DNA of 64,000 bases from a virus: IMG/VR virus record IMGVR_UViG_3300019763_000001, positions 91,494-155,493 of that record; one strand, 5' to 3'. The position numbers and the translations under genes were made by a program. This document shows positions 46,312 through 46,406 of this stretch, piece by piece. Numbering within the stretch: the first letter of the stretch is position 1; the number at the start of each line of letters is the position of its first letter. The notes under the pieces are model-generated. The model was given only the letters and a program-made list of their open reading frames with translations. It made no database searches and was not told the origin of the DNA.

Positions 46312-46406
46312 GGTGAGTAAATTCGTCGGGGACGGACTCTGGATTCTAAACCAGCAGGTATGAGTTAGTAGCTCGTATGGGGGTCGGGACCACCTGCTCA
46401 CCTCCA
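46312..46406 (+). tRNA. non-canonical Sec/allo-type tRNA with 8-nt anticodon loop, anticodon UCUA (putative UAGA quadruplet decoder, probably Ser)
   Basis: 8-bp acceptor GGTGAGTA/TGCTCACC, U73, CCA; 6-bp D stem TTCGTC/GACGGA; CTGG-ATTCTAAA-CCAG; long variable arm GTATGAGTT/AGCTCGTAT; degenerate T arm GGGGGTCGGGACCACC. Confidence 0.82.

Follow-up and report, generated by a model that had tools for sequence, protein, structure and literature searches.

A candidate natural UAGA four-base codon and its predicted serine-type tRNA in a T4-like phage

The locus and its source

At positions 46312-46406 of a 64,000-nt stretch of viral DNA (the window; positions 91,494 to 155,493 of IMG/VR record IMGVR_UViG_3300019763_000001) lies a tRNA-like RNA with an eight-nucleotide anticodon loop, and we describe here this RNA together with the interrupted phage genes that it may decode. 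The record is a complete genome of 155,493 bp with direct terminal repeats and 35% G+C, of which the window forms the final 64 kb; the phage is T4-like, its top matches being Ackermannviridae-like phages and Pseudomonas phage pf16 at 38-44% identity, and T4-type late promoters lie upstream of its structural genes. It is present in three microbial-mat sequencing runs dated 2018. Logan contigs from two of these (20x and 39x) are identical to window positions 39500-58500, with zero substitutions or gaps, and the third run holds near-identical pieces of the phage sequence; the two matching runs may be the source of the record, yet they were assembled separately, and the comparison was made on contigs, not raw reads. 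At first inspection the core genes of this phage appeared truncated.

An allo-tRNA-like RNA with a UCUA anticodon

The original prediction, made from the letters of the window, was of a 95-nt RNA with an 8-bp acceptor stem, U73-CCA, a 6-bp D stem with a tiny loop, and a CUGG/CCAG stem closing an 8-nt anticodon loop with UCUA at 46345-46348, all of which sequence and folding bear out. The acceptor stem pairs 46312-46319 with 46395-46402 and includes one U-G pair, U73 lies at 46403 and is followed by an encoded CCA (46404-46406), the D loop is GGG (3 nt, as against the tetraloop of allo-tRNAs), and the anticodon stem reaches 6 bp if one C is left bulged. UCUA is complementary to UAGA. The long variable arm, put at 7-9 bp, has 9 bp in the fold. 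Pair probabilities are 0.9-1.0 for most pairs of the acceptor, D, anticodon and variable arms and 0.46-0.8 for those of the T arm, which had been described as degenerate with a non-canonical loop; a drawing with a 4-bp T stem, one bulged A and a loop of 7 nt comes to -33.7, the minimum free energy being -34.0, and at almost no energetic cost would give the 8/4 (12-bp) branch found in allo-tRNAs. A rival 7-bp helix (46353-46359 with 46392-46398) does exist, but with an ensemble probability of about zero it does not compete with the cloverleaf, as had been feared. Likeness to both selenocysteine (Sec) tRNA and allo-tRNA had been proposed; of the allo-tRNA traits, the 8-bp acceptor, the long D stem, the long variable arm and U73 stand, whereas the Rfam tRNA-Sec model RF01852 gives no match and the anticodon is not UCA.

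The RNA region is 53% G+C against 23-39% around it. The 95-mer alone folds with a z of -2.0, and with its flanks with a z of -5.0 (0/200 shuffles); among the seven CCA-ended stretches genome-wide that fold with a 7-bp acceptor, it stands far ahead in stability (-34 kcal/mol, the others -9 to -15). In the precursor a 15-bp clamp prolongs the acceptor stem and pairs the CCA (Table 1), and no such clamp flanks the Met and Arg tRNA genes of the phage. When 108 tRNAs were compared globally with the RNA, the best match was Escherichia coli serW (z 4.2; 0/1000 shuffles), the likeness lying in the acceptor stem, the ends of the variable arm and the G run of the T stem.

Genes interrupted by in-frame TAG

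Joins were tested at every stop codon on both strands, in steps of 3, 4 and 5 bases (15,119 candidate combinations of stop and shift), against the proteins of five isolated phages and 83 viral loci, a join passing where it outscored each side alone. Homology backed nine of the 1,147 four-base steps at TAG, none of the 10,339 other frame changes and none of the 925 TAG triplet read-throughs; that is, each homology-backed frame change in the genome is TAG plus one base. Gene calling with TAGN as a single step, together with gp41, gave 17 sites in 16 genes (Table 1), at which the TAG is in frame and the gene resumes only in the +1 frame, directly past a fourth base. Single PHROG profiles span 12 of the joins, in 11 genes. 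The joins in uvsX, nrdA, nrdB, gp45 and RuvC are gapless, with one residue per four bases; in gp55, the A1-like gene and the phrog_4756 gene the profile match begins ahead of any start codon 3' of the TAG; and in primase the join connects the halves of the zinc ribbon, with one Cys pair on either side. Sixteen of the 17 sites lie within the first 55 codons (3.8 expected), and nearly all 16 genes serve replication, recombination, deoxynucleoside triphosphate supply or late transcription; the majority of the phage's DNA-replication genes are among them.

Table 1. Features of the RNA locus and the TAG junctions (window coordinates unless marked as genome)
Feature	Position	Strand	Remarks
Allo-tRNA-like, Ser-type tRNA body (predicted)	46312..46406	+	95 nt; fold, pair probabilities
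8-nt anticodon loop A32 U33 UCUA A37 A38	46343..46350	+	closed by CUGG/CCAG
Clamp, 5' arm	46297..46311	+	perfect 15-bp helix with 46404-46418, z -5.0
Clamp, 3' arm	46404..46418	+	contains and buries CCA
Intergenic sigma70-like promoter (candidate)	45913..45940	+	10/12; could drive two small open reading frames and the tRNA
uvsX TAGA, codon 30	40648..40651	+	gene 40561-41699, 378 aa; Ser in column of 75/86 homologues
uvsX second TAGA, codon 328	41543..41546	+	brings back C-terminal 50 residues
gp41 helicase junction	42225..42237	+	gene 42123-43578; TAGG (42225) codon 35, in-frame TAGA at 42234
gp43 DNA polymerase TAGA, codon 54	53643..53646	+	gene 53484-56226, 913 aa; column mostly Ser/Thr
dda helicase TAGA, codon 15	25933..25936	-	gene 24640-25978; profile covers residues 2-439
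189-aa gene without known function, TAGA codon 47	24484..24487	-	gene 24055-24625; coding score only
phrog_4756 gene, TAGA near start	30958..30961	-	profile match starts ~30 residues before first post-TAG start codon
A1-like	genome 18776		outside window; TAGT
Primase	genome 19767		outside window
Deoxynucleoside monophosphate kinase	genome 21400		outside window
gp55	genome 22170		outside window
gp45	genome 38632		outside window
RuvC-like	genome 39717		outside window; TAGT
nrdB	genome 41209		outside window
nrdA	genome 43515		outside window
Small open reading frame	genome 54916		outside window
73-aa virion protein	genome 80599		outside window
tRNA-Arg(UCU), canonical	62940..63017	+	besides tRNA-Met(CAT), sole standard phage tRNA

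The four-base step acts at translation. Inside intact genes there are 2,001 out-of-frame TAGN, none of which causes a shift, and since sequencing error, polymerase slippage and editing are blind to frame, these are excluded as its source. The 0 frame closes 0-19 codons past each TAG, so that suppression by triplet reading would be of no help; at both TAGT sites (L002:1776 and L003:5717; minus strand) the 0 frame runs TAG-TAA, and there triplet read-through would end immediately. The codons preceding TAG are diverse, one of the 17 being able to re-pair fully in +1, and no slippery codon in the ribosomal peptidyl (P) site, Shine-Dalgarno (SD)-like signal, common motif or stable 3' hairpin is shared by the 17 sites. 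After the joins, the called genes end in TAA (122) or TGA (62), and TAG is the true end of at most two of about 184 genes (at genome 510 and 54747). In five related phages 8-24% of genes end in TAG (p 2e-10), and the identical join test on these five found no joins. We regard the four-base step as almost certainly real.

Some further TAG contexts may be recorded here. An SD-led open reading frame (ORF) of 89 aa at genome 243-512, outside the window, stops at a TAGA beyond which the +1 frame codes poorly; tRNA-Met flanks it on one side and an incomplete, mutated copy of the tRNA-Met 3' half on the other. This very early gene possibly holds the one true TAG stop. A small gene (L004:3735-4048, minus strand) has a TAGA at codon 45 and ends in TAGG, with a back-up stop 2-4 codons on in either reading. 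Isolated TAGG+1 joins scored in two unrelated viral contigs (L077:10872 and L131:5784) are probably lone frameshifts.

The inserted residue and the fourth base

Column log-odds summed over eight sites favour Ser (+11.8 bits) over Thr (-0.9), Gln (-8.8), Gly (-11.9), Arg (-15.2) and Cys (-17.6). Besides the first uvsX site, Ser occupies the nrdA column in seven of eight homologues and is found in the nearest nrdB relatives in a gapless match; the columns hold Ser/Thr in gp43, Asn/Ser in gp45 and Ser/Thr/Asp in RuvC. Skipping the U of UAGA would give Arg, whereas decoding by the tRNA predicts Ser, and from these alignments we consider it highly probable that Ser is the residue at the junctions. 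The RNA does not misread AGA, since the ordinary AGA codons of the phage align to Arg, and a reassignment of AGA to Ser was rejected on the same grounds; the phage tRNA-Arg(UCU) may keep AGA decoded as Arg.

The fourth base is A at 14 of the 17 sites (38% background, p 2.5e-4), T at two, G at one and C at none. A wobble reading of UAGG had also been proposed. The sole internal TAGG is that of gp41, where an in-frame TAGA follows three codons on and both routes reach the same frame; the route that takes TAG as a triplet and then TAGA as a quadruplet is 4.2 bits better over 77 homologues, because Val then lands in an L/V/I column that never shows Cys. The gp41 site is thus better explained without wobble, which stays unproven, and the RNA may sometimes be a plain amber suppressor. 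Apart from A, the fourth base that is clearly used is U, at the two TAGT sites.

Decoding, gating and the alternatives

The original prediction of a serylated four-base decoder of UAGA agrees with the 17 obligatory TAG+1 junctions, with the homologue columns, in which Ser scores best, and with serW as the closest tRNA, and on this sequence evidence the RNA is very probably the decoder. We also think it probable that the phage uses a natural UAGA(N)=Ser four-base codon which is read by this RNA and gates replication and late transcription. The clamped precursor would be processed to release the RNA, host seryl-tRNA synthetase would charge it via the long variable arm and the serW-like acceptor, and EF-Tu would deliver it on an acceptor branch of 8+4 = 12 bp. 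Where an in-frame UAG has A (best) or U as its next base, the charged RNA would compete with host release factor 1 (RF1), insert Ser and let the ribosome move four bases. Before processing and charging the 16 genes would yield short peptides only; once the RNA is active, replication and gp55/gp45-driven late transcription would start together. The late programme is placed behind the same gate because gp55 and gp45 are among the targets and T4-type late promoters precede the structural genes. Sites near gene starts make a failed translation cheap, as a switch would want, and the clamp is a candidate control point, for example through processing by RNase III. We lean slightly towards the RNA as a regulatory gate; the fuller proposal, of a four-base codon with a dedicated fourth-base-sensing tRNA and a lock on replication and late genes that is opened by precursor processing, we hold to be evenly poised. 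An alternative purpose would be a firewall against gene theft by co-infecting elements.

Several observations weigh against these proposals. The case is built on one genome, for which a close relative was looked for and none found, the best proteins being about 43% identical; and no homologue of the RNA was found in phages, plasmids, E. coli or metagenomes, nor by an acceptor-plus-loop pattern. ARAGORN, which the original prediction had named as a check, and the Rfam tRNA and tRNA-Sec (RF01852) models all fail to detect the RNA, the T loop lacks U54 and A58, and the resemblance to serW is modest, with a runner-up at z 3.9. For two of the 17 sites the coding score is the only evidence, and neither the primase column, which is aromatic, nor the gp41 column, which is variable, favours Ser. 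Genes for a release factor and a class II synthetase, either of which might help against RF1, were looked for and none found, nor was Pth2 or, near the tRNA, a convincing R-x-P-P arrest leader; RegA was the only translation factor among 30 additional proteins scanned.

The RNA may also be viewed as a +1 frameshift suppressor of the classical kind that at times also suppresses amber, with CUA pairing to UAG and the shift taking place at translocation or in the P site. This gives the same four-base outcome and is a mechanistic variant compatible with decoding by the RNA, and the balance tips a little in its favour: the two TAGT sites lack a standard fourth pair, the gp41 TAGG suits a triplet reading, and in SufB2 three bases pair and the shift follows at translocation (bioRxiv 10.1101/2020.12.31.424971). 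The strong selection for A and the lack of any C show, on the other side, that the fourth base is sensed at some step; simultaneous pairing of all four bases seems to us slightly less likely than not.

Explanations that leave the RNA out fare worse. Slow termination at UAG might by itself allow the U to be skipped, with AGA then read as Arg or AGU as Ser and the RNA an unrelated or decayed tRNA. Such a shifty stop would suit the phage-encoded tRNA-Arg(UCU), the TAGT sites, which yield Ser in both readings, and the defective T loop; yet Arg lies 27 bits below Ser and does not figure in the residue lists of the TAGA columns, the P-site codons are diverse, with full re-pairing in +1 at 1/17 and no stimulatory SD sequence or shared structure seen, and it would be left to chance that a Ser-type loop is exactly complementary, all of which makes it improbable. 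We give equally little credence to a host factor (a quadruplet tRNA, or a lack of RF1 activity) that makes the step, with the phage RNA a decoy, a regulator or a relic with clamped CCA: the perfect anticodon match, A32 and the intact acceptor, D and variable-arm helices argue for selection as an adaptor, and the phage's own tRNA explains the near-total loss of TAG stops. In favour of a host factor are the CCA hidden within the clamp, the degenerate T arm and a host search that gave matches of only 32-36%. That the breaks are artefacts or decay is hardly credible, whether they are put down to insertions in assembly or sequencing (e.g. at modified bases), to transcriptional slippage, to editing or to a genome that is defective. 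There is a single genome, seen in contigs, with two matching runs that may be its source; but the breaks all fall at in-frame TAG and leave the 2,001 out-of-frame TAGN untouched, two runs are identical and the third has near-identical pieces, and the genome is complete with terminal repeats and has every downstream frame intact.

Comparison with known systems

A literature search, mostly without subscription papers, found no published natural pair of quadruplet tRNA and codon. With the (8/4) allo-tRNAs and tRNA-Ser of bacteria and phages (PMC5389517) the phage RNA shares the 8-bp acceptor, the long D stem with tiny loop, the long variable arm, U73, a predicted Ser identity and a non-Ser anticodon. 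It differs from them in its 8-nt loop, four-base anticodon, 3-nt D loop, degenerate T loop and identified target codons; a 7-nt loop with a triplet anticodon and a canonical T loop, by which allo-tRNAs are recognized, are both lacking. The Ser identity of allo-tRNAs was assigned from the long variable arm and G73/U73, and Ser insertion was shown in E. coli (Mukai et al., PMC5389517), in a text that does not contain 'quadruplet', 'frameshift' or '8-nt'. Bacterial tRNA-Sec (selC) is of equal length (95 nt), with the same arm layout and a similar anticodon arm, and its UCA plus one U makes UCUA; however, the sequence match is not significant (74/1000 shuffles; no RF01852 match), the 17 sites share no hairpin like the Sec insertion sequence, and the columns favour Ser over Cys/Sec.

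An 8-nt UCUA loop on a Ser scaffold is also the design of the engineered quadruplet tRNA (qtRNA)-Ser-UAGA and its evolved C32A/A38C form (PMC8481270, PMC9094753). The best laboratory-evolved Ser-UAGA tRNA gained A32 (PMC9094753, PMC8481270), which the phage RNA shares, and competition with RF1 would be alike. Evolved, pyrrolysine-derived UAGN readers all carry UCUA and decode UAGA, UAGG and UAGU, not UAGC (PMC4764823), so that U is tolerated in the fourth position and C is not, as in the phage sites. The phage RNA differs from engineered qtRNAs in being natural, in its allo-tRNA-like scaffold, A38 and non-canonical T loop, and in having 16 native genes as targets.

Stop-recoded phages (TAG=Gln, TGA=Trp) resemble the present one in having a suppressor tRNA, loss of the recoded stop and a probable timing switch in a standard-code host. 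Here, in contrast, the step is of four bases with a change of frame, the residue is Ser by prediction, and there is about one site per gene, near its start; the targets are replication genes and late-transcription activators, the reverse of the structural and lysis genes that are recoded in TAG=Gln phages (Borges et al., bioRxiv 10.1101/2021.08.26.457843). As in code 15, the recoded codon is depleted as a stop; in-frame triplet read-through of TAG is not seen (0/925 joins), apart from one possible use in gp41. The laboratory mutants sufD, sufJ and SufB2 likewise have an extra anticodon-loop base and shift by +1, but are selected mutants of sense-codon tRNAs, whereas here there is a dedicated gene with obligatory stop-codon targets throughout the genome. 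Stop-codon +1 shifting in Euplotes and the AGGY/CCCY shifts of Perkinsus mitochondria (PMC5009743) also affect many genes with a +1 shift at one codon; those proceed by P-site slippage or have no known decoding tRNA, whereas the phage sites lack a slippery codon and the genome itself encodes a tRNA that matches. The marks of a shifty stop, as in prfB and Euplotes, namely a slippery P-site codon or an internal SD sequence, are absent from the sites.

Four-base codons have been regarded as a laboratory invention, and in the present case a free phage seems to depend on one for genes that are essential; if true, this phage uses a UAG-based four-base codon across its core genes. Nature and directed evolution would seem to have converged on a Ser scaffold, UCUA, A32 and the avoidance of UAGC. 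The phage must outcompete RF1 efficiently, and it is there that engineered UAGA systems meet their main limit. Because the tRNA is encoded alongside its putative targets, the long-standing question of a natural non-triplet codon becomes directly testable: a single gene of 95 nt, 17 native contexts and the peptides predicted at the junctions are at hand. Other such phages may hide in databases, since gene calling shortens the genes in question and the RNA escapes tRNA-finding programs.

Neighbouring genes and other viral tRNAs

The promoter candidate upstream of the RNA does not by itself exceed chance. The neighbouring ORF at 46516-46980 resembles only unnamed viral proteins, and two genes 3' of the RNA lies one for a Bax inhibitor-1 / YccA-like membrane protein (47145-47765). 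A C5 cytosine methylase (Pfam) adjoins an unnamed gene at 56545-58413, where DNA hypermodification is possible; the TAGA at 57588 was rejected as a target, being out of frame within the intact methylase gene. At 31050-31600 a strand switch, AGCG repeats and two copies of a 31-bp repeat give an origin-like appearance.

In the searches for relatives of the RNA, 13 exact matches to the anticodon arm were rejected as chance, and general UCU/UCUA patterns returned mostly Arg tRNAs with 7-nt loops. Two other viral tRNAs have possible 8-nt UCUA loops (L308:26-57 and L313:7890-7921); neither contig is enriched in TAG+1, and TAG ends two of the 92 long ORFs on the L313 contig. Many viral tRNA-like genes with a 7-nt UCU loop (L173, L175, L177, L178, L187, L188, L214 and others) seemingly lack a D arm 5' of the anticodon arm and have, within the variable region, a segment like a D loop; this rearranged form of tRNA-Arg is odd and recurrent. 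A canonical amber-suppressor tRNA with a 7-nt CUA loop is encoded on another viral contig (L234, position 1173, minus strand).
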